Positions 4,285-63,145 of a DNA stretch of 64,000 nucleotides are shown in pieces (positions within the stretch are counted from its first letter, which is position 1; each line of letters opens with the position of its first letter). Under the pieces are notes generated by a model. The model did no database searches. It was not told the DNA's origin and saw only the letters and a list, made by a program, of their open reading frames with translations. The DNA is from Escherichia phage BYEP02. The position numbers and the translations under genes are program-made. The stretch lies in sequence record OR757454.1; one strand, given 5' to 3'.

Positions 4285-6612
4285 ATGATGGAACTAATTA
4301 CAGAATTATTTGACGAAGATACTACTCTTCCGATTACAAACTTAAATCCAAAGAAGAAAATACCACAAATTTTTTCAGTTCATGTTGATGACGCAATTGA
4401 ACAACCAGGCTTTCGTTTATGTACCTATACATCTGGAGGTGATACTAATCGTGATTTAAAGATGGGCGATAAAATGATGCACATTGTTCCTTTTACATTA
4501 ACTGCTAAAGGTTCAATTGCTAAATTGAAAGGTCTTGGTCCAAGCCCAATTAATTATATCAATTCAGTTTTTACTGTTGCAATGCAAACAATGCGTCAGT
4601 ATAAAATTGATGCCTGCATGCTTCGTATTCTTAAGTCTAAAACCGCTGGTCAAGCTCGACAAATTCAAGTTATTGCTGATAGACTTATCCGTAGTCGTTC
4701 AGGTGGCAGATACGTCCTTCTTAAGGAACTCTGGGATTATGATAAAAAGTATGCATATATTCTTATACATCGCAAAAATGTATCACTAGAAGACATTCCA
4801 GGAGTTCCGGAAATTAGTACCGAGCTCTTTACTAAAGTTGAATCGAAGGTCGGTGATGTTTATATCAATAAAGATACTGGAGCTCAAGTAACTAAAAATG
4901 AGGCAATTGCAGCATCTATTGCAAGGTCGGTGATGTTTATATCAATAAAGATACTGGAGCTCAAGTAACTAAAAATGAGGCAATTGCAGCATCTATTGCA
5001 CAAGAAAACGATAAACGTTCTGACCAAGCTGTAATCGTTAAAGTTAAAATTTCCCGTAGAGCAATTGCACAAAGTCAATCATTAGAGTCTTCTAGATTTG
5101 AAAGTGAATTATTCCAGAAGTATGAATCTACAGCAGCTAATTTTAATAAACCAGCTACTGCACCTTTAATTCCCGAAGCAGAAGAAATGAAAATTGGAAT
5201 TAATTCATTAGCTTCTAAAACTAAGGCAGCAAAAATCATTGCCGAAGGAACTGCAGATGAACTTCATTATGACTATAAATTCTTTTCAAAAAGTGAGGTT
5301 AATGAAGTTTCTGAAAAAATTAAAGATGTAATTCTTAATGCGATTAAAAATGAACCAACCACTTCAATAAAATGTTTAGAGAAATACGCAGCAGCTGTTA
5401 ATCAATTCTTTGAAGAATATAAAGATAATTGGCTTGATAAACATAATAAAACACGTAAAGGACAGCCAGATGAAGTCTGGGAAGAAATAACTAAAAATTC
5501 CTGGAACGCGACAAAAACTAAATTCCTCAAAAGAATGATTTATAGTTTCTCTGGAATTGGTGCAGGTCCAATGATTGATATTACTATTGCCCGTGATGGT
5601 TCTAAATATACTCCATCACAAAAGCGCGGCATTAGAGAGTATTGCGGTTCAGGATATACTGACATCAATAATCTTCTTTTAGGACGCTACAATCCAGAAC
5701 GATATGATGTAATGAGTGAAAAAGAAATTGAATCTGCTATAAATAACTTAGATTCAGCTTTTGAAAATGGTGACCGCATACCGGAAGGCATCACAGTTTA
5801 TCGTGCTCAAAGCATGACTGCTCCTATATACGAAGCATTAGTTAAAAATAAAGTATTCTATTTCAGAAATTTTGTATCTACTTCTTTAACTCCTATCATT
5901 TTTGGACGTTTTGGATAGTTAAAAATAAAGTATTCTATTTCAGAAATTTTGTATCTACTTCTTTAACTCCTATCATTTTTGGACGTTTTGGAATTACACA
6001 TGCTGGTATTGGTCTTTTAGAACCAGAAGCTCGCAATGAATTAACAGTTGATAAAAATGAAGAAGGAATAACTATTAATCCAAACGAAATAAGAGCGTAT
6101 AAAGAAAATCCTGAATACGTTAAAGTTCAAATAGGATGGGCAATTGATGGAGCAATCCAAACGAAATAAGAGCGTATAAAGAAAATCCTGAATACGTTAA
6201 AGTTCAAATAGGATGGGCAATTGATGGAGCTCATAAAGTTAATGTTGTATATCCAGGAAGTCTCGGAATAGCAACAGAAGCTGAAGTTATTCTACCGCGT
6301 GGATTGATGGTCAAAGTTAATAAAATAACTGATGCTTCTAATAATGACGGAACAACATCTAATAATACAAAACTCATTCAAGCTGAAGTTATGACCACGG
6401 AAGAGCTCACCGAATCGGTAATCTATGATGGAGACCATTTAATGGAAACTGGTGAATTGGTTGCAATGACAGGTGATATTGAAATAGAAGACAGAGTTGA
6501 CTTTGCATCATTTGTTTCATCAAATGTTAAACAGAAAGTAGAATCATCTCTTGGAATTATTGCGTCTTGCATAGATATTGCAAACATGCCTTACAAGTTC
6601 GTTCAAGGATAA
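4285..6612 (+). CDS. alt: ADP-ribosyltransferase Alt, interrupted by three 77-nt duplications
   Basis: N-terminus MELITELFDEDTTLPITNLNPKK recognised as T4 Alt; TATAAATA late promoter 21 nt upstream; total length fits about 682 aa plus three 77-nt inserts. Confidence 0.8.
4846..4999. repeat. 77-nt tandem duplication
   Basis: Period 77 verified; in alt. Confidence 0.9.
5841..5994. repeat. 77-nt tandem duplication
   Basis: Period 77 verified; in alt. Confidence 0.9.
6075..6228. repeat. 77-nt tandem duplication
   Basis: Period 77 verified; in alt. Confidence 0.85.
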
Positions 6613-9422: not shown

Positions 9423-11272
9423 TTAATTAACTCCAGTCGCATCAAATACACCAGGAGCAGTTGTGCTTGTGACAGGTGTCATATTATGAACGACAGTATT
9501 TTTCTTAATAACATTATTAGTATTATTGATTGAAGGAGATGCTTGCTGAACAGGAGCTTGCTGTGCTTTGTTCTTTTCAATAACCTGGACCTGTTTCGCT
9601 TCTGGCGATTTAGCAGAAGTTTCAGGTTTGGCATTAGGCTGATTTTTCTTGAGCTCTTGATAAGTAGCATCAATTTTAGAAAATCTAGCAGCAAGTTCTT
9701 TTTTAACTGCCGGTGAATTGTTTAAATCCGGGTCATCCATCCGTTTTTTAAGGTCTTCATAGGCAGATTCAACAGATTTAACCGTTGAGTCTTTACTCAT
9801 ATCAGCTGAATCAGCATATTTTTCAAAACGAATCATCGCGGCACGTGCTTCATTAGCCTTCATTAAAGCATTTTTTCTTTCTTCAGGTGAAAGCTGCTTT
9901 AATTTTTCTTCTTCTGCTGCACGTTCTTCGTCGGTAGTTAGTGCTTCTTTATTATCAACACCGCGAATCCAATTAGATGCACGAGTTTTCCAATTAGCAA
10001 TTTTATCTAATCCTTTTGCTATCGGACCAAGGTCTCCGTTCATTCGTTTATCTTGATAATTTGCAACTTTTTCTTGGTCTTCTTTATTGAGAGATGCTCC
10101 AGTAGAATTTTGGAAATTTTCCAATGCTCTTCCTTCTACTTCATCAGCAGTATCCTTCATACCAGGAATGACTCGAAGAATTGCTGCAGATAATTTAGCC
10201 ATACCTAATTGAATAAGCTCTCCTAAATTAAAAAGAACACTTCCAAGTCCTTCTATGATAGCTGTTGTCAATCCACCCCAATCTCCCGCTTCCCAAAGTT
10301 GTTTAATTTTATCAATAGAATCAAAGATGCTCTGTAATAAAGGACCCCACCACCCCAATCTCCCGCTTCCCAAAGTTGTTTAATTTTATCAATAGAATCA
10401 AAGATGCTCTGTAATAAAGGACCCCATGTTCCGGTTTCGCTAGAGAATTTAGTAAAATCAGTACTATATAAATCCCAGGCTTTTGAAAATTTATCTGACC
10501 AGTATTTAAAATGAACCATCAACAGGTCTATTCCAACAACAACAGCCAATATCATTGCAGTCATTTTAGCAGCTTCAATAGCAGCACTAACGGTATACTT
10601 AAATAGCATGCTTGATATTTTATCAGTAATTGAAATAGATTTCTTAAATCCAAAATCAACTGTCTTTGTTAATTTATCTAAAGCTTGAGATAATTTTAAG
10701 TTAAATGCTTCTTTTTTCTGTTTTTCTTCTGGTGATTCTTGTTTGGGTTCAACTGGTTGAGGGGTAGGGAAAAAATCAGCGTCAGGATCATTATTAACTG
10801 CTTCGGGAGCTGGTAATAAAGGACCCACAGATTCGGCAGTATCATCCTCAACGACTTTAACAGGAATAGCGCTTTCAACCGTGGCTAAACTAGTTCCCGT
10901 CTGTTGAATTCCAGCTGTCTGAATTTTTTGCTCTAGTAAACTTGTTAATTTATCTAATTTGCTTCCGAGTGATTCACCGATTTCTTTATTAATATTGTTG
11001 CCAATTTCGACAGTTTCAGCAATTAACTCAGAACCAGCAGTAGTATCACTCACTGCGCTTTCTACGTTATCAATTGCTCCAATTATTTCATTCGATTTTT
11101 CTTCGACAGTTTGAGCTATTAATTCAGAAGCAGCTTGAGCATCATCCAATTTCGTAGAAATGTCATTAAGCCCAGATAAAGTATTAGAAGCGGATTTAGC
11201 CGCTTCCTGTGTTGGTTTATTATCTGAAATAACTTTTCTACGCATCGTTTGCATTTCTTGTGGCTTTTTCAT
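9423..11272 (-). CDS. 29: tail tape-measure / baseplate hub protein, one 77-nt duplication inside
   Basis: Length 1850 nt = 590 aa + stop + 77; gene order 28-29-48. Confidence 0.8.
10273..10426. repeat. 77-nt tandem duplication
   Basis: Period 77 verified; in gene 29. Confidence 0.9.
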
Positions 11273-40188: not shown

Positions 40189-40844
40189 GCTGTTCTCTCA
40201 AAATGATAAAGTACTGTAGGAGTCTGCTGATTATCTAAAGTTACAGTTTGTGCGCCTAATAAATTCCATGTACCATAGCCAGGTTTAGACTCAGAAATAA
40301 TTTCCTGCGAAATAGTTATTCCATATGTAGAATATGTGCTTAATACATGTTTTTGATTGTCTAAATAAGTAACTTCTAATTTACTACCATCTGTTGGATG
40401 GTCTTTATATGAATTGATAGCAGTAAATGACGCAATAGCTTCTTGTAGTGCAACACGAACTTTGGCAACAAACTCGATAGCTGTCATTCCGGTTGTTGCT
40501 GAAACTGGAAGACCAAATACTAATACAGTAACAGGAGAACCAGGAGGAAGCGAATCATCTGTCACAGTTCCTGAAAATGCCCAATAATCAGTTTGAGAAA
40601 CACCCTCAGGAGAAACACCAGTTTTATTAGTAATAATTGTACCAACGTCTTTTATAGAAAAATTATGAACGTCATTAATAGCTGATTCTACGTTTGGTTC
40701 ATAAAATCCTTTCGCTAATTGAGAAATTGTCACTGACCCAACTGATTGACGATTCATTACATCTATATTACCAGCTTTAGGTCTAAAACCAAGAAAATCG
40801 GCTAAGCGGGAAATAACTCCCGCTTTATTATTAAGTAAACTCAT
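40185..40844 (-). CDS. 11: baseplate wedge / short-fibre attachment protein gp11 (219 aa)
   Basis: [20 protein letters not shown]...; start inside copy 1 of a junction duplication. Confidence 0.85.
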
Positions 40845-40953
40845 TATGCAATCCTTATCCAACGATAAACTGTAATAGCTAAGCGGGAAATAACTCCCGC
40901 TTTATTATTAAGTAAACTCATTATGCAATCCTTATCCAACGATAAACTGTAAT
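40800..40953. repeat. 77-nt tandem duplication
   Basis: Spans gene 10 stop and gene 11 start. Confidence 0.85.
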
Positions 40954-42729
40954 ATATGGTTGAATGTTAGTTATTGATGTTGGCGGAGTGTGAGTAGAGT
41001 TAGTAGATGCTTTAGCTTCACGGTATTTAGTGTAGATTGGACCGGATTCATCTGGATCGTATTGACACCCACCAACAATGACTGATCCATTTTCATCAAC
41101 TATTAGAACTTCTTCATCTGTTTCAGTTGCAGGAAGATTAGCATTTTCCAATGTAACAGAAGTAGAACCACCTGTTCCACCTGCAGTATGTGAAGGATTT
41201 CCACCCGAATCTAAATCGTTGTTATTTAGAGCAAAGTTAGGGTCCGAAATATCTTCATTCCATCCAACTAAAACTTTTCCTTGCCCAAATAATTTCCATG
41301 AGCCGAATCCCATATATGTAACAGGGTTATTTGGATTAACAGCGTTTTCATATATAGTTCCAATAGGATAAATCGTATCAAAGATATTTGAAACAGCATT
41401 AAATTCGCGTTGGTAAGATTGAACTGCTTCTACATTTGGCCAACCAATTTTATCGAAGTCTGTTAAATTTACATCACCAGAAATATCTACTCCCGGTCCT
41501 TGCGATACATAAAGATTATCAGTTTCATCAATAATCTCATCTTTTGTTAATAATGTACCCAAATCATTATTAAACCAGGTGATATTGATAATGTCACCAT
41601 GCTCAAATACTCTATCGAAATGTAAAATTTCCGGTATGCCGTTTTCATCAGTTTCAACTGAATAATCGGTATGAGATTGTTCCCAAGTTCCACCTAAAAC
41701 AGAGCATTCTACTTCATCGTCTGAATCGGCACCAACACAATGAAATAATGGCATTCCAACTGTTCCAGCCAATTCCTGCAAAATCCCGTTAAAACGAACC
41801 TCAAGAGAATTAGGATTAATAGGTTCTCCTGGAATTAATCCAAAAGCAGAAAATGGAATTGATTTCATTGTTGATAAATCAGTAACGTAAATACTTCCTT
41901 CTAAAGAAGTTTTTGACGTTAATTTTGAATCTAACAATCTAATTTGACGTCTTGTATATGAACTTCTCCACTGCGATACACCATCCATAAATGTTTCAAT
42001 TTGAACAGTGTCACCAATATTACAAGGCTGTCTTAATCGAATATTAAATCCATCAAGAGGAACTAGTTCTCCTTCATTTTCGCCCGGAGAGCCAAAATCG
42101 CTGTTTTCGCTAAACACATCGCCGTAATACAATTCGTTACCACGATGTTTTACTCTGATGTTATTTACATTATAACTGGTTCCACGGAAAACATCTAAAA
42201 AGTCTGTTTGTCCTTGGACTTCGACTAAAAATTCTTTACGAGCTACATTACTAATGTCTGAACTGGTAATTTTGTCAATTTGTTTATTTTTGACATATTC
42301 CCAACGTCCTGGGGCACAATACACTAGTTCTAAATCGCTGAATTGAACATTAATTTCAACTGGTACTGCAGACCCTTTAATCGTATCGCCGGAAGCAGCT
42401 ACTAGTGTAACTGGGTTGACGTTCCATGTAGCAAATACGTCTCTAGCTCTAATTACCTTGTTGTAATCATTAACTGTACCCTTTGGAAGATTTATAGTCA
42501 CTCTTCCAGAAGATGTATTAATAGCGTATGATTTTCCCCATTCTGCTGTTAATGTTTGTCCTGATGAAGCATTATAAGTTTTCCAGGCACCAGCTGAATA
42601 TGGAACATCACCATCACCGAGTTCATAATAAAGCTCATCAAAGTTTTCATTTATTTTTATACCACCTTTACGCAGGTAGTCACCGGTACCATCATCTACA
42701 ACATTACCGATATTAATATTTTGTTTCAT
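40921..42729 (-). CDS. 10: baseplate wedge protein gp10 (602 aa)
   Basis: 602 aa; gene order 9-10-11. Confidence 0.9.
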   Translation of the reverse strand: MKQNINIGNVVDDGTGDYLRKGGIKINENFDELYYELGDGDVPYSAGAWKTYNASSGQTLTAEWGKSYAINTSSGRVTINLPKGTVNDYNKVIRARDVFATWNVNPVTLVAASGDTIKGSAVPVEINVQFSDLELVYCAPGRWEYVKNKQIDKITSSDISNVARKEFLVEVQGQTDFLDVFRGTSYNVNNIRVKHRGNELYYGDVFSENSDFGSPGENEGELVPLDGFNIRLRQPCNIGDTVQIETFMDGVSQWRSSYTRRQIRLLDSKLTSKTSLEGSIYVTDLSTMKSIPFSAFGLIPGEPINPNSLEVRFNGILQELAGTVGMPLFHCVGADSDDEVECSVLGGTWEQSHTDYSVETDENGIPEILHFDRVFEHGDIINITWFNNDLGTLLTKDEIIDETDNLYVSQGPGVDISGDVNLTDFDKIGWPNVEAVQSYQREFNAVSNIFDTIYPIGTIYENAVNPNNPVTYMGFGSWKLFGQGKVLVGWNEDISDPNFALNNNDLDSGGNPSHTAGGTGGSTSVTLENANLPATETDEEVLIVDENGSVIVGGCQYDPDESGPIYTKYREAKASTNSTHTPPTSITNIQPYITVYRWIRIA

Positions 42730-57976: not shown

Positions 57977-58341
57977 ATGAAAACTTTCAAAGAGTTTACT
58001 ACAAAAACTACCCCGGTTTCTACTATTACTGAAGCTACTCTTACTTCTGAAGTTATTAAAGCAAATAAAGGACGAGAAGGTAAACCAATGATTAGTTTGG
58101 TTGATGGCGAAGAAATCAAAGGTACTGTTTACCTAGGTGATGGGTGGTCTGCTAAAAAGGATGGTGCTACAATCTGGTTGATGGCGAAGAAATCAAAGGT
58201 ACTGTTTACCTAGGTGATGGGTGGTCTGCTAAAAAGGATGGTGCTACAATCGTTATCTCTCCTGCTGAAGAAACTGCGTTGTTTAAAGCTAAACACATTT
58301 CTGCGGCACATCTCAAGATTATTGCTAAAAATCTTTTGTAA
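57977..58341 (+). CDS. ipI: internal protein I (capsid-packaged, injected), one 77-nt duplication inside
   Basis: MKTFKEFTTKTTPVSTITEA|TLTSEVIKANKGREGKPMISLVDGEEIKGTVYLGDGWSAKKDGATIVISPAEETALF...; capsid-targeting N-terminus with gp21-type L/I-x-E site. Confidence 0.8.
58100..58253. repeat. 77-nt tandem duplication
   Basis: Adjacent copies; in ipI. Confidence 0.85.
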
Positions 58342-59506: not shown

Positions 59507-59542
59507 GTTTGAGAGCCTTTGTTAATAATTGGGAATCATATT

Positions 59543-60151
59543 ATGGATACTAAATTAGCTGAAATTTTTGAAGGAAAACATCCAAATTTTAGTACAGGAA
59601 AGCTGAAAGATAAAATAATAAAAGAAAATATTTTTCCATATGAGTGTGCAATTTGTAAAATTTCAAAATGGCAAAATAAGCATATTGTTCTGCAATTAGA
59701 CCATATTGACGGAAATAACAAAAATCATCTTAAATCAAATTTAAGATTATTATGTCCAAATTGCCATTCGCAAACTGATACTTTTGCTGGTAAAAATATT
59801 AAAAATAATAAAAAGCGTTATAATGTTAGTGATGAAGAAATTTTAAACGCATTATTAAATTCTGCTACTATATCATCTGCAATTACTTCATTAGGTTTAA
59901 GTAAAGGCGGAAACTATAAAAGATTCATTAAAATTGCTAATGATAATAAATTATATCATTTACTGGTAAATATTAATGAAAACATTTTAACTGATGAAAT
60001 TTACGAAGAATTAGTTAAAATTGATTATTCTAAATTTGGATGGGTTAGTAAAGCTGCTAAAATAATAGGTATAAGCCCACAAAAAGCTAGAAAATGGATA
60101 GAACGAAAGTGTCCAGAATTGATAGAACAATCTTTTTCACGTAATAAATAA
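59543..60151 (+). CDS. HNH homing endonuclease
   Basis: HNH motif HIDGNNKNHLKSNLRLLCPNCH; sits directly upstream of the tRNA cluster; MotA-box promoter upstream. Confidence 0.75.
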   Translation: MDTKLAEIFEGKHPNFSTGKLKDKIIKENIFPYECAICKISKWQNKHIVLQLDHIDGNNKNHLKSNLRLLCPNCHSQTDTFAGKNIKNNKKRYNVSDEEILNALLNSATISSAITSLGLSKGGNYKRFIKIANDNKLYHLLVNINENILTDEIYEELVKIDYSKFGWVSKAAKIIGISPQKARKWIERKCPELIEQSFSRNK

Positions 60152-60157
60152 TATAGA

Positions 60158-60244
60158 GCGAGAATGGTCAAATTGGTAAAGGCACAGCACTTAAAATGCT
60201 GCGGAATGATTTCCTTGTGGGTTCGAGTCCCACTTCTCGCACCA
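60158..60244 (+). tRNA. tRNA-Leu (anticodon TAA), type II
   Basis: Cloverleaf read by eye: anticodon loop CTTAAAA, long variable arm, GGTTCGAGTCC T-arm, CCA encoded. Confidence 0.8.
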
Positions 60245-60249
60245 AATTT

Positions 60250-60323
<74 letters not shown>

Positions 60324-60477
60324 ATTTAATTTACTCCGTGTAGCTCAGTTTGGTAGAGCGTCTGCTTTGGGAGCAGAATGTCGCAGGTTCAAATCCTGCA
60401 ATTTAATTTACTCCGTGTAGCTCAGTTTGGTAGAGCGCCTGATTTGGGATCAGGAGGTCCAAGGTTCAAATCCTTGT
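60324..60477. repeat. 77-nt tandem duplication (diverged copies) over tRNA-Pro
   Basis: Period 77; 10 mismatches in the 3' 40 nt, arranged as compensatory pairs in the anticodon and T stems. Confidence 0.85.
60334..60400 (+). pseudogene. truncated tRNA-Pro-like copy lacking the 3' acceptor strand
   Basis: Copy 1 of a 77-nt duplication; 5' 37 nt identical to tRNA-Pro, anticodon and T stems differ by compensatory changes. Confidence 0.6.
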
Positions 60478-60484
60478 ATGGAGA
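60411..60484 (+). tRNA. tRNA-Pro (anticodon TGG)
   Basis: Acceptor CTCCGTG/TATGGAG (G-U pairs); anticodon loop TTTGGGA; T-arm GGTTCAAATCC. Confidence 0.75.
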
Positions 60485-60486
60485 CT

Positions 60487-60576
60487 GGAGGCGTGGCAGA
60501 GTGGTTTAATGCACCGGTCTTGAAAACCGGCAGTCGCTCCGGCGACTCATAGGTTCAAATCCTATCGCCTCCGCCA
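60487..60576 (+). tRNA. tRNA-Ser (anticodon TGA), type II
   Basis: Acceptor GGAGGCG/CGCCTCC; anticodon loop CTTGAAA; long variable arm; CCA encoded. Confidence 0.8.
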
Positions 60577-60685
60577 GTTTTGCTGATTTAGCTCAGTAGG
60601 TAGAGCACAGTCGCTCCGGCGACTCATAGGTTCAAATCCTATCGCCTCCGCCAGTTTTTGCTGATTTAGCTCAGTAGGTAGAGCA
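60532..60685. repeat. 77-nt tandem duplication over the tRNA-Ser/tRNA-Thr junction
   Basis: Period 77; one T indel between copies; makes a chimeric pseudo-tRNA. Confidence 0.9.
60583..60653 (+). pseudogene. chimeric tRNA fragment (Thr 5' part fused to Ser 3' half)
   Basis: Created by the 77-nt duplication at 60532-60685; no matching acceptor stem. Confidence 0.6.
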
Positions 60686-60735
60686 CCTCACTTGTAATGA
60701 GGACGTCGGCGGTTCGATTCCGTCAATCAGCACCA
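60660..60735 (+). tRNA. tRNA-Thr (anticodon TGT)
   Basis: Acceptor GCTGATT/AATCAGC; anticodon loop CTTGTAA; T-arm GGTTCGATTCC; CCA encoded. Confidence 0.8.
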
Positions 60736-60736
60736 A

Positions 60737-60811
60737 GGCCCTGTAGCTGGAAGGTTCAAGCAAGCGACTCATAATCGCCAGATGGTGGTTCAATTCCACC
60801 CAGGGCCACCA
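60737..60811 (+). tRNA. tRNA with anticodon CAT (Ile2-type or Met)
   Basis: Acceptor GGCCCTG/CAGGGCC; loop CTCATAA; T-arm GGTTCAATTCC; D-arm atypical. Confidence 0.6.
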
Positions 60812-60820
60812 AATTAATTT

Positions 60821-60907
60821 GGGGAGTTATCCCGTAGAGGTAGCGGTGTGGACTGTAAATTCATTGTCATTGCGACTCGGGTGGTTCGACTCCACCACTC
60901 CCCACCA
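60821..60907 (+). tRNA. tRNA-Tyr (anticodon GTA), type II
   Basis: Acceptor GGGGAGT/ACTCCCC; anticodon stem GTGGA/TTCAT with two G-U pairs; loop CTGTAAA; long variable arm; T-arm GGTTCGACTCC. Confidence 0.55.
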
Positions 60908-60911
60908 ATTT

Positions 60912-60986
60912 GGATGTGTAGCTCAATGGCAGAGCGATCGCCTGTTAAGCGATTGGTTATAGGTTCGAATCCTATCACGTCCGCCA
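60912..60986 (+). tRNA. tRNA-Asn (anticodon GTT)
   Basis: Acceptor GGATGTG/CACGTCC; D-arm GCTC..GAGC; anticodon stem ATCGC/GCGAT, loop CTGTTAA; T-arm GGTTCGAATCC. Confidence 0.65.
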
Positions 60987-61100
60987 AATTTGTGACAACT
61001 GTCACATTAATATCTACTTGACGCGATTATAGGGGTTGAACTGATCACTCTTCTCTTAATTTCGTGTGAAGACATCTTGATTGTTGGAGTAGGTATTAAT

Positions 61101-61176
61101 GTGGCCGTAGTTCAGTTGGTAGAACTCGAGATTGTGATTCTCGTAGTCATGGGTTCGACTCCCATCGGTCACCCCA
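61101..61176 (+). tRNA. tRNA-His (anticodon GTG)
   Basis: Acceptor GTGGCCG/CGGTCAC; anticodon stem CGAGA/TCTCG, loop TTGTGAT; T-arm GGTTCGACTCC. Confidence 0.7.
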
Positions 61177-61180
61177 ATTA

Positions 61181-61256
61181 CGGGGCATAGCTCAGAAGGA
61201 AGAGCAAGGACCTTCTAAGTCCTAGGTCGTAGGTTCGATCCCTACTGCCTCGACCA
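61181..61256 (+). tRNA. tRNA-Arg (anticodon TCT)
   Basis: Acceptor CGGGGCA/TGCCTCG; anticodon stem AGGAC/GTCCT, loop CTTCTAA; T-arm GGTTCGATCCC. Confidence 0.75.
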
Positions 61257-61274
61257 ATTATAAGTGAGGAAAAT

Positions 61275-61625
61275 ATGAAAGGTAATGTTTATTTAGTAGT
61301 TCATGATTTAACATTTTACTTCAATGAATATGAAAAACATATCTCATTTCGTGAAATTAATTTACTTTATCAACATGCGGATTATATTTATATTCAAAAC
61401 GAATTTGGTCATTGGCAATTTCTCAAAAATCGTTCATTTGGCTTAGATGGTTACGAATACTTTGAACGTAAAGACCTTTTAGATAAAATTCCGTTATCTA
61501 CGCAATATCAAAATCACAAATCTTTATATAAATGCCGTCCAATTCGAAATGTTGAATCCGCGTATGAAGCAATTGATTTATGGCGTGAACGCCGTAAACA
61601 GATTGATGCTTTAAAAGAATATTAA
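61275..61625 (+). CDS. hypothetical protein (116 aa)
   Basis: ORF with GAGGAAAA RBS directly after tRNA-Arg. Confidence 0.5.
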   Translation: MKGNVYLVVHDLTFYFNEYEKHISFREINLLYQHADYIYIQNEFGHWQFLKNRSFGLDGYEYFERKDLLDKIPLSTQYQNHKSLYKCRPIRNVESAYEAIDLWRERRKQIDALKEY

Positions 61626-61885
61626 GAAACCGGGTCGCTACCGGTAAGTCGTCGGACTGATGTTCCCTGAGTAAGGAATTGCGTTAATAATCTTTGCGTT
61701 TATTGATGCCCTCTTACATCACAGCAGAAACGGCGCACCGAATTATCGATTCGAGGAAATATCTTTGCCGTAAGCCGAGTAGCGTTTTTGACGGAACGTT
61801 CGGATATGGTCGAGATATGGCCTTTTAAAAATATTGAGTAGCGTCAACTGCTTAATAACCGGGTTCGAATCCCGGCGTTTCGTAC
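61626..61885 (+). ncRNA. candidate structured RNA with a tRNA-like T-arm at its 3' end
   Basis: About 260 nt with no ORF of 60 aa or more on either strand; 3' CCGGGTTCGAATCCCGG T-arm followed by CGTTTC complementary to the 5' GAAAC. Confidence 0.3.
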
Positions 61886-61934
61886 AAACACTTGCCTTAG
61901 CAGGTGGAACCCCGACAAGGTTGCCGCAAGGCTT

Positions 61935-61962
61935 AGCCCCGACCGAAAGGTTGGGGCTTTTT
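61935..61962 (+). terminator. terminator-like hairpin AGCCCCGACCGAAAGGTTGGGGCT + T5 (81-nt unit, copy 1)
   Basis: GNRA-loop hairpin plus U-tract. Confidence 0.55.
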
Positions 61963-62015
61963 GGTATAACACTTGCCTTAGCAGGTGGAACCCCGACAAG
62001 GTTGCCGCAAGGCTT

Positions 62016-62043
62016 AGCCCCAGCCGAAAGGTTGGGGCTTTTT
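62016..62043 (+). terminator. terminator-like hairpin, 81-nt unit copy 2
   Basis: Same hairpin with two substitutions, plus U-tract. Confidence 0.55.
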
Positions 62044-62045
62044 AG

Positions 62046-62053
62046 TATAAATA
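62046..62053 (+). promoter_or_regulatory. late promoter core TATAAATA (internal-protein-like gene)
   Basis: Exact motif 37 nt upstream of ATG 62090. Confidence 0.55.
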
Positions 62054-62089
62054 AGTATATTAAATCTACAAATTAAAACAGGAAATAAG

Positions 62090-62563
62090 ATGAAATCATA
62101 TGCTCAATTTTTAAATGAAGCGGTGTTAAATGAAGCATCTAGCACTGAAATTCAAGCTGTTGCAAAAGCTGCCATTGCCGCGGGTAAATATTCCTATAAA
62201 GATGCTTCCGATGAATCACGATTCCAATTTGCTCGTGATATGAAAGCCGAAGGATTTACAGGGAATGCAGTTAGTATGGCTTGGAAAAGTTTAGTTGCTA
62301 CTGGAGCTGCTTTTGCAAAGGCTTCAGGTAAACCTGCTCCTAAGGCTGACCCTAAAGCAGCACAAGAAAAAAATATTGCTAAAGGAATTATCTCTAGGTA
62401 TGAAGCAATTCTTAAAGAACTTTTGATAATTAAGACCGAAGGCCAGAAACTTGCGCGTGCTTATAGTTTCAAAGATAATCCACATGCTCATGACCTAGAG
62501 TATGTTGAAGACCTCCAAAAAATCATCAAAGACCGCATTTGGTCTGCTAAACAAATCAAATAA
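62090..62563 (+). CDS. internal-protein-like (IPII/IPIII-type) capsid-targeted protein (157 aa)
   Basis: N-terminus MKSYAQFLNEA resembles the T4 internal-protein capsid-targeting sequence with an L-x-E protease site; TATAAATA 37 nt upstream; terminator downstream. Confidence 0.5.
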   Translation: MKSYAQFLNEAVLNEASSTEIQAVAKAAIAAGKYSYKDASDESRFQFARDMKAEGFTGNAVSMAWKSLVATGAAFAKASGKPAPKADPKAAQEKNIAKGIISRYEAILKELLIIKTEGQKLARAYSFKDNPHAHDLEYVEDLQKIIKDRIWSAKQIK

Positions 62564-62570
62564 CATTCTT

Positions 62571-62599
62571 AGCCCCGACCAAAAGGTTGGGGCTTTTTG
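62571..62599 (+). terminator. intrinsic terminator AGCCCCGACCAAAAGGTTGGGGCT + T5 after the internal-protein-like gene
   Basis: Third copy of the same hairpin family 8 nt after the stop. Confidence 0.65.
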
Positions 62600-62731
62600 G
62601 TATCTAGGCCTTTCCGGGCCTCTCTAGGCATCATTTAGTTTATACCCTTTATAATATATTATCCTACCTTTTAATTGCCCCTCCTGACCCTAGAATTCCC
62701 TAAAACTTTTTAAAAATTTTTTCACAAAACT

Positions 62732-62761
62732 GTTTACATCCCTGTTCTTCCATGGTACTAT
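62732..62761 (+). promoter_or_regulatory. T4-early-type promoter upstream of ORF 62805
   Basis: TTCACAAAACTGTTTACA, 18 nt, TACTAT. Confidence 0.5.
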
Positions 62762-62804
62762 ACAACTATCAACTACTGATACAGAAAATAACTTGGAGAA
62801 TGAA

Positions 62805-63145
62805 ATGGATAATTACGGCGAACTGTTCAACTTCTTTATGAAATGCGTTTCAGAAGATTTCGGTCGTACAGTGAATGATATTAAAGTCATCGGTCCTGAC
62901 CATCCAACTTCTTTATGAAATGTGTTTCAGAAGATTTTGGTCGTACAGTGAATGATATTAAAGTTATCGGTCCTGATCATCCGATGTTTGAAACTTACGC
63001 AGTAATGGGTAATGAAGATGGTCAGTGGTATACTGTAAAGGTTGTGATTAACATGTTCACTGCTGAAGGTTATGTTAAACTGTCTTCTAAAGTTTACCAT
63101 GATAACGATGAAATCGCAGAAGAATATTTCAATAATATGAAATAA
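62805..63145 (+). CDS. hypothetical protein (about 88 aa), one 77-nt duplication inside
   Basis: MDNYGELFNFFMKCVSEDFGRTVNDIKVIGPDHP...; early promoter upstream. Confidence 0.5.
62828..62981. repeat. 77-nt tandem duplication
   Basis: Period 77 verified; 4 C/T differences, all at third codon positions; in ORF 62805. Confidence 0.9.

Follow-up and report, generated by a model that had tools for sequence, protein, structure and literature searches.

The question raised by the stretch between 61886 and 62599 of Escherichia phage BYEP02 (record OR757454.1) is whether a T4-like phage has doubled the end of its stable-RNA operon. An 81-nucleotide (nt) non-coding unit with a terminator hairpin stands there twice in tandem, and the same hairpin recurs after the next gene. 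The window, meaning the whole 64,000-nt stretch of this T4-like (Tequatrovirus) sequence that was analyzed, allowed us to observe the anatomy of the locus, its copy numbers, a switch of ancestry between the two copies and the presence/absence pattern of the neighboring gene among relatives. The tandem repeat is almost certainly not a real feature. The terminator that flanks the internal-protein-like gene on both sides, that gene itself and its late promoter are real and of known kinds.

Within the window the repeat is clear. Tandem Repeats Finder reported a period of 81 with 2.0 copies at 61887-62050 (96% matches, 0 indels), and a direct scan found the two 81-nt copies identical at 78 of 81 positions, with a matched stretch of 83 nt. 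Copy 1 (61887-61967) and copy 2 (61968-62048), both on the plus strand, differ at unit positions 55-56, where copy 1 has GA and copy 2 has AG, and at unit position 77 (G and A, respectively), and the longest exact stretch common to both is 54 nt. A 30-nt terminator probe had exactly three matches, at 61933, 62014 and 62569, and none in 100 shuffles. The letters were as a preliminary description of this DNA had given them, with an 81-nt repeat in non-coding sequence, a third hairpin after the next gene (called here at 62571-62594) and the motif TATAAATA at the 3' edge of copy 2 (62046-62053). What was not confirmed was the tandem arrangement as a property of a real genome, as it falls on a block boundary and the unit is single copy in every relative.

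The region 61600-62700 matched 761 phage records, nearly all from Escherichia, Shigella or Yersinia T4-like phages. A 55-nt probe from the 5' half of the unit was observed in 600 records at 600 places, and a 35-nt probe from its conserved core in 735 records at 735 places. One unit was present in all three of the closest annotated relatives and also in T4, and the 15 IMG/VR contigs with a real match each contained a single copy. A 157-amino acid (aa) protein identical to that encoded directly downstream was observed in two public contigs, ENA scaffold_49 (168,997 nt) and Logan SRR22877749 (22,367 nt), each with one unit. The junction of copy 1 and copy 2, used as a 34-nt megablast probe, had no matches among 50,697 GenBank phage records. 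Exact junction patterns were not found in IMG/VR, JGI metagenome contigs or GTDB genomes, and a gapped pattern for two unit copies 55-85 nt apart was not found in IMG/VR. A tandemly repeated terminator or RNA-stability cassette, as the preliminary description had proposed, fails against single copies in 600 of 600 and 735 of 735 related records. The single copy it had named as speaking against that proposal was found by proxy, in the related records and in the two contigs with the identical downstream protein.

Ancestry changes between the two copies. The left block, 60608-61969, was 99.93% identical to slur03, and the part of it at 60690-61967 matched vB_Eco_QOTSP with 0 mismatches in 1278 positions (100%), including the G at 61963 (unit position 77). 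The right block, 61968-62905, was 96.6% identical to slur03; its part at 61968-62827 was 94.9% identical to QOTSP (40 mismatches in 864 positions), and the best GenBank phage match was 97.7% (ADUt). After the unit, QOTSP continues with AAATATAGTAG, into the late promoter, and not with AACACTTGCC, which begins the second unit. With its 81 nt, copy 1 closes the left block, from a QOTSP-like strain, and copy 2 likewise opens the right block, from a different strain. Block comparison places the switch at 61967/61968, where GGTAT meets AACACTTGCC, a junction whose probe had no matches elsewhere. The copy 1 allele G at unit position 77 occurs in the single-copy unit of QOTSP and the copy 2 allele AG in the single-copy unit of an IMG/VR contig (L029). 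Judged by these sequences, the three differences between the copies are ordinary allelic differences between strains.

This junction is one of a long series. We observed 53 ungapped tandem duplications of exactly 77 nt across the window and one more with an indel, in addition to the single 81-nt case. BLAST against slur03, covering 62 kb of that genome, divided the window into 57 collinear pieces, with identity jumping between 95.7% and 100% at every duplication. Successive pieces overlapped in reference coordinates by 77 nt (49 times), 78 nt (3 times), 79, 75 and 81 nt, and the one remaining transition between slur03 pieces was the natural 288-nt hoc repeat. Examples of the 77-nt duplications include 4846-5000, 10273-10426, 40801-40954 and 58098-58251, each at a block boundary by identity to slur03. 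The one duplication tested against relatives, inside the alt gene, was missing from 497 of 497 matching relatives. Many of the 77-nt duplications sit in essential genes (head, tail, baseplate), and since 77 is not a multiple of 3 they would frameshift these genes, so that such duplications cannot belong to a viable phage.

About half of the junction overlaps were non-identical between their copies, at strain-polymorphic sites, and one or two carried an indel. Where the 77-nt copies differed, the changes were mostly transitions spaced at multiples of 3, as expected for strain polymorphisms, and each copy of a duplication carried the alleles of its own block. The jumps of identity at the duplications, together with these own-block alleles, point to a multi-strain chimera in which both ends were kept at every join. 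On the sequence comparisons several T4-like strains have been mis-stitched into one chimeric record, with about 57 blocks and both homologous ends retained at the joins; the process that built the chain of blocks we infer from its products. The preliminary description had taken the 81-nt repeat to be different in kind from the 77-nt duplications. It carries the same signature, and only the length differs.

We therefore consider it very probable that the 81-nt tandem duplication arose as a join artefact in this record and is not a feature of the phage genome. Blocks from different T4-like strains would have been joined with the end of one and the homologous start of the next both kept, which would leave direct duplications, of 77 nt at 53-54 joins and of 81 nt here, copy 1 being the end of the QOTSP-like block and copy 2 the start of another strain's block. 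The duplication lies exactly at the boundary of collinear blocks with different ancestry, it is absent from all related genomes examined, and its copies differ by alleles of different strains. Some observations weigh against a join artefact. The overlap is 81 nt and not the usual 77 nt of the record, with no indel between the copies, and no explanation was found for the extra 4 nt. In addition, a phage could survive 81 extra nt at this non-coding site, so that viability, which excludes the duplications in essential genes, does not speak against this one.

These observations also suit an alternative in which the duplication is real. Two co-infecting T4-like phages would have recombined, illegitimately or unequally, at a 2-nt microhomology (AA), and the assembler would by chance not have broken at this place. 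The end of one parent's unit would have been joined to the start of the other's, giving copies from different lineages. A period other than the record's standard 77 would fit such an event, as would a length that is a multiple of 3 at a non-coding site, where it would be tolerated, and an intact terminator stem kept in both copies. The longest exact shared stretch, at 54 nt, is also too short to tangle a k=77 graph, and a standard k-mer overlap does not predict this one. For the junction to lie inside a contig, however, 60608-62905 would need to be a natural recombinant with its breakpoint at the very same base, and the ancestry switch falls exactly on the junction as it does at the other 54 artefactual joins. 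No such arrangement was found in the 735 related records or in IMG/VR, metagenome or GTDB contigs, and the contigs encoding the identical downstream protein have one unit. We regard real recombination as improbable. A further alternative follows the reading of the preliminary description, a repeated terminator or RNA-stability cassette. The doubling of this module would be functional and under selection, insulating a late gene for an injected protein from the tRNA operon. A selected arrangement should recur among the approximately 400 phages with the same gene and never does, and the objections from copy number, ancestry switch and single-unit contigs apply here as well. Tandem terminators do occur in nature and raise termination efficiency, and terminator copies do flank the gene. 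The GA to AG change also keeps pairing, but this is uninformative because the UU of the opposite strand pairs with A or G. Functional doubling is in our judgment the most improbable of these explanations, with hardly any chance of being correct.

With a join artefact preferred, two accounts of how the overlaps came about were considered and rejected. A 4-nt TAGT indel polymorphism was observed at 62054, between TATAAATA and AGTATATT, 9 nt to the right of the repeat; TAGT is present in slur03 and QOTSP and absent from the window, Aplg8 and ADUt, and its length equals the difference between 81 and 77, possibly by coincidence. Derivation of 81 from 77 through this indel, with right-anchored tiles of fixed length, was rejected since blocks with a net indel relative to slur03 keep 77/77 overlaps. 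Exact k=77 k-mer overlap as the sole cause was rejected on the differing copies, and on the indels, noted above for about half and for one or two of the overlaps, respectively.

Repeats, frameshifts and split genes in this record need comparison with the block boundaries before they are interpreted. Within the tRNA cluster, 77-nt duplications were observed at 60322-60474 and 60531-60686, creating partial tRNA copies, and Rfam gave partial tRNA matches at 60341-60399 and 60589-60642, at these duplications. A further 77-nt duplication at 62828-62982 splits the e.8 homologue into open reading frames (ORFs) of 41 aa and 76 aa. Other records also contain the 76-aa ORF of the e.8 region, as a natural alternative call, and it is not diagnostic. 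In database look-ups, neither a 77-nt junction probe nor a truncated 37-aa ORF from around this junction was found.

As a single copy, the unit forms the 3' trailer of the T-even tRNA/stable-RNA operon together with its rho-independent terminator. Ten tRNA genes were observed at 60158-61256, followed on the plus strand by rnaD (species 2 stable RNA, 61621-61739), which aligns without a difference to the annotated rnaD of Aplg8, and by rnaC (species 1 stable RNA, 61746-61884), assigned by homology to the annotated rnaC of Aplg8 and T4 and containing a tRNA-like 3' domain (GGTTCGAATCC). The order tRNA-Arg, rnaD, rnaC is also that of the T4 annotation. The 81-nt unit starts 2 nt past the annotated rnaC 3' end. 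According to the passage of PMC2330249 that cites Broida and Abelson, transcription in T4 runs across all of the tRNA cluster and ends after the gene for species I RNA. The layout of the unit is an invariant 34-nt core, a small tetraloop hairpin, and then a 10-base pair (bp) GC-rich stem with a GAAA loop and T5.

The hairpin has the form of a canonical intrinsic terminator, as the preliminary description had proposed, with both stem and T-run called by the terminator scan. Stems of 10 bp were called at 61935-61958, 62016-62039 and 62571-62594, each followed by a T-run and each of approximately -20 kcal/mol, and at all three places 7 of the 10 pairs are G-C, the loop is GAAA (or AAAA) and T5 follows. 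All three terminators lie on the plus strand. That of unit 1 (61935-61963) is annotated as a terminator in Aplg8. That of unit 2 (62016-62044) was identified by probe, terminator scan and folding, and its GA to AG change converts G.U/A-U pairs to A-U/G.U. The third (62568-62603), identified by probe, terminator scan and comparison with relatives, is a 36-nt direct repeat of 61932-61967 (35/36 identical) and closes the cassette of the 157-aa gene. Termination at these hairpins in this phage is predicted from their sequence.

Two ORFs near the operon were also observed. A 116-aa ORF at 61275-61625 (phrog_3355, function unassigned) lies between tRNA-Arg and rnaD, whereas in T4 tRNA-Arg abuts rnaD with no gene between them. 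A 210-aa ORF at 59519-60151, just upstream of tRNA-Leu, had a weak HNH-endonuclease match (17.4 bits, below the Pfam cut-off). Aplg8 and T4 have tRNA-Gln at the place of this 210-aa ORF, and no tRNA-Gln was found in this part of the window.

The minimum free energy (MFE) fold of the unit was -36.5 kcal/mol (z = -3.4), comprising a 7-bp hairpin (CACUUGC/GCAGGUG), a weak AACC/GGUU helix, the mini-hairpin GCC-GCAA-GGC and the terminator. The preliminary description had drawn the first hairpin differently, with GCCTT...AAGGC around GGAACC...GGTT, and that fold reached -26.9 kcal/mol against the -36.5 kcal/mol of the MFE fold. Its outer helix GCCTT/AAGGC was disfavored: it costs approximately 10 kcal/mol more, the fold with it weakens to -20.4 kcal/mol in T4, and two natural variants have lost its 3' strand. 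The 5' part, with the first hairpin, does not vary, so that covariation gives no basis for a choice between the folds. The mini-hairpin (61923-61932, repeated at 62004-62013, plus strand) has the variants ACC-CUA-GGU and CCG-CAA-CGG; its closing pair changes from G-C to A-U in three sequences, and the mini-hairpin is deleted in two. The terminator stem showed one covariation across genera, from C-G to G-C (four sequences).

Conservation is highest at the 5' end of the unit. An alignment of 16 distinct sequences from four Tevenvirinae genera (Tequatro-, Gapriver-, Dhaka- and Roskildevirus, including Erwinia phage IT22) revealed a 34-nt invariant core (AACACTTGCCTTAGCAGGTGGAACCCCGACAAGG) at 61887-61920, repeated at 61968-62001, on the plus strand. 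Across these first 34 nt (AACACTTGCC, loop, GCAGGTGGAACCCCGACAAGG) the only variation was in the loop and in two Roskildevirus-type sequences (IT22 and L016), which have a short insertion and a neighboring change (GGAA-AC-T/G-CCCG), while the mini-hairpin and terminator vary. In a sensitive search, Gaprivervirus and Dhakavirus phages matched the 81-nt unit only and not rnaC. What precedes the core varies: Tequatrovirus has rnaC there and Dhakavirus the 3' end of an rnaD-like sequence, VR20 has a stop codon, and IT22 has a terminator. In phiE142 the core is unchanged, though identity to the window is no more than 82.9% over the 789 nt that flank it. With E values of up to 1 allowed, no Rfam 15 covariance model matched 61887-62050 or the corresponding units in four other phages.

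It is a tentative and rather unlikely proposal that the core, invariant whatever lies upstream, is an undescribed functional RNA element, which would make the unit more than a terminator. The core may act as a 3'-processing signal for the last stable RNA, or it may form the body of an approximately 75-nt RNA from the 3' end, with the terminator as its tail, that could act in trans. A literature search for 3' processing of species 1 RNA found nothing in the papers covered. Papers that mention rnaC and rnaD give their function as unknown (including PMC3014915), and as of that 2010 review no trans-acting small RNA of T4 had been functionally characterized (PMC3014915). As a single-copy element in four genera with no Rfam family, the core is the only item at this locus that perhaps merits follow-up. 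The functions of rnaC and rnaD have been unknown for fifty years, and an element conserved where their transcript ends could be relevant to their processing or be an RNA itself.

At the 3' edge of the second unit, the motif TATAAATA (62046-62053, plus strand) abuts the terminator T-run. It is positioned as a T4-type late promoter, 37 nt before the ATG at 62090, and a late promoter is annotated at the homologous place in SA20RB, in agreement with the preliminary description. The motif scan found 26 sites in the window compared with 8.9 expected. The promoter is predicted to be active and to drive the 157-aa gene (62090-62563, plus strand), a member of phrog_2280 (function unassigned). The preliminary description had likened this gene to those for internal proteins, and the N-terminus of its product does resemble the capsid-targeting sequence of T4 IPII/IPIII. 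Seven of the first 11 residues are identical between MKSYAQFLNEA and MKTYQEFIAEA, with S/T and L/I as conservative changes. Pfam gave no match for the protein, and BLASTP against T4 IPIII gave no similarity beyond the N-terminus. From its ORF, family match and N-terminus we consider it a candidate internal (injected) protein, by analogy possibly an anti-restriction factor. As an internal protein it would be packaged in the head, cleaved by the prohead protease and injected along with the DNA.

The same terminator on both sides of the gene, also noted in the preliminary description, was found in approximately 400 related phages. Relative to T4, a cassette of late promoter, 157-aa gene and second terminator is present in the window and in about 400 of 614 matching records. 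Direct repeats of 36 nt (35/36 identical) bound this 555-nt insertion/deletion cassette, and T4, without the cassette, has one terminator. The single T4 terminator continues with the sequence found after the third hairpin of the window, placing the breakpoints inside the terminator repeat, which fits gene gain or loss by recombination between terminator copies. On these sequences, homologous recombination between the terminator copies is the most likely origin of the cassette. The second terminator copy aligns in all three of the closest gene-carrying relatives, and by exact pattern the two copies are 535-559 nt apart in most of the gene-carrying relatives fetched. Aplg8 and L034 gave the exact pattern once only; alignment showed two stem-loop changes in the second Aplg8 copy. 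In other phages this slot is empty, or is occupied by other MK[TS]Y... genes or by a gene of another kind.

The query from the right block (61968-62827) had 3-4 match places per related genome; it takes in the early-promoter region (62600-62800) that precedes the e.8 homologue. We suspect that these multiple matches reflect extended early-promoter similarity.

The systems most similar to those described here are known in kind. The doubling resembles untrimmed contig-end overlaps, of which the 77-nt k-mer overlap of SPAdes contigs is an example. Both leave a direct duplication exactly at the join of collinear pieces, dozens of times in one record, inside essential genes and absent in relatives. 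They differ in that about half of the overlaps here carry strain alleles, which exact k-mer overlaps would not, and in that this one is 81 nt long. The single unit compares with the terminator of the T4 tRNA/stable-RNA operon (Broida and Abelson 1985, as cited in PMC2330249) in its same place and nearly same sequence. Its T4 counterpart, likewise of 81 nt and beginning 2 nt past rnaC, has 4 differences from copy 1 of the window. In T4 the e.8 early-promoter region lies directly 3' of the terminator, whereas here the late promoter, the 157-aa gene and a second terminator intervene, and a doubled unit is observed in this record only.

The cassette is similar to the promoter-early stem-loop (PeSL) cassettes of T4-type phages (2010, PMC2839356; Comeau et al. 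2014, PMC4122927), in which short direct repeats with a terminator and promoter flank a non-essential gene that some close relatives have and others lack, with indel breakpoints inside the repeat, as was found here. Unlike PeSLs, the adjoining promoter is the late TATAAATA and not a sigma-70-like early promoter, with no sigma-70-like site called beside the hairpins. There are also three terminator matches in 64 kb, two of them real, in place of many dispersed copies in hyperplastic regions. The gene itself compares with the T-even internal protein (Ip) genes, reportedly the subject of work by Repoila et al. in 1994. It differs from them in adjoining the tRNA region and not lying at the two T4 ip loci, and in belonging to a family without assigned function (phrog_2280). 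It shares with them a late promoter, a small non-essential gene, a start resembling the N-terminal signal and an unrelated remainder; T-even internal proteins likewise have a capsid-targeting N-terminus with the rest unrelated (PMC3012670, PMC12373910). The underlying biology of the locus is that of a tRNA-operon terminator, a late promoter and an Ip-like gene cassette bounded by repeated regulatory sequence.

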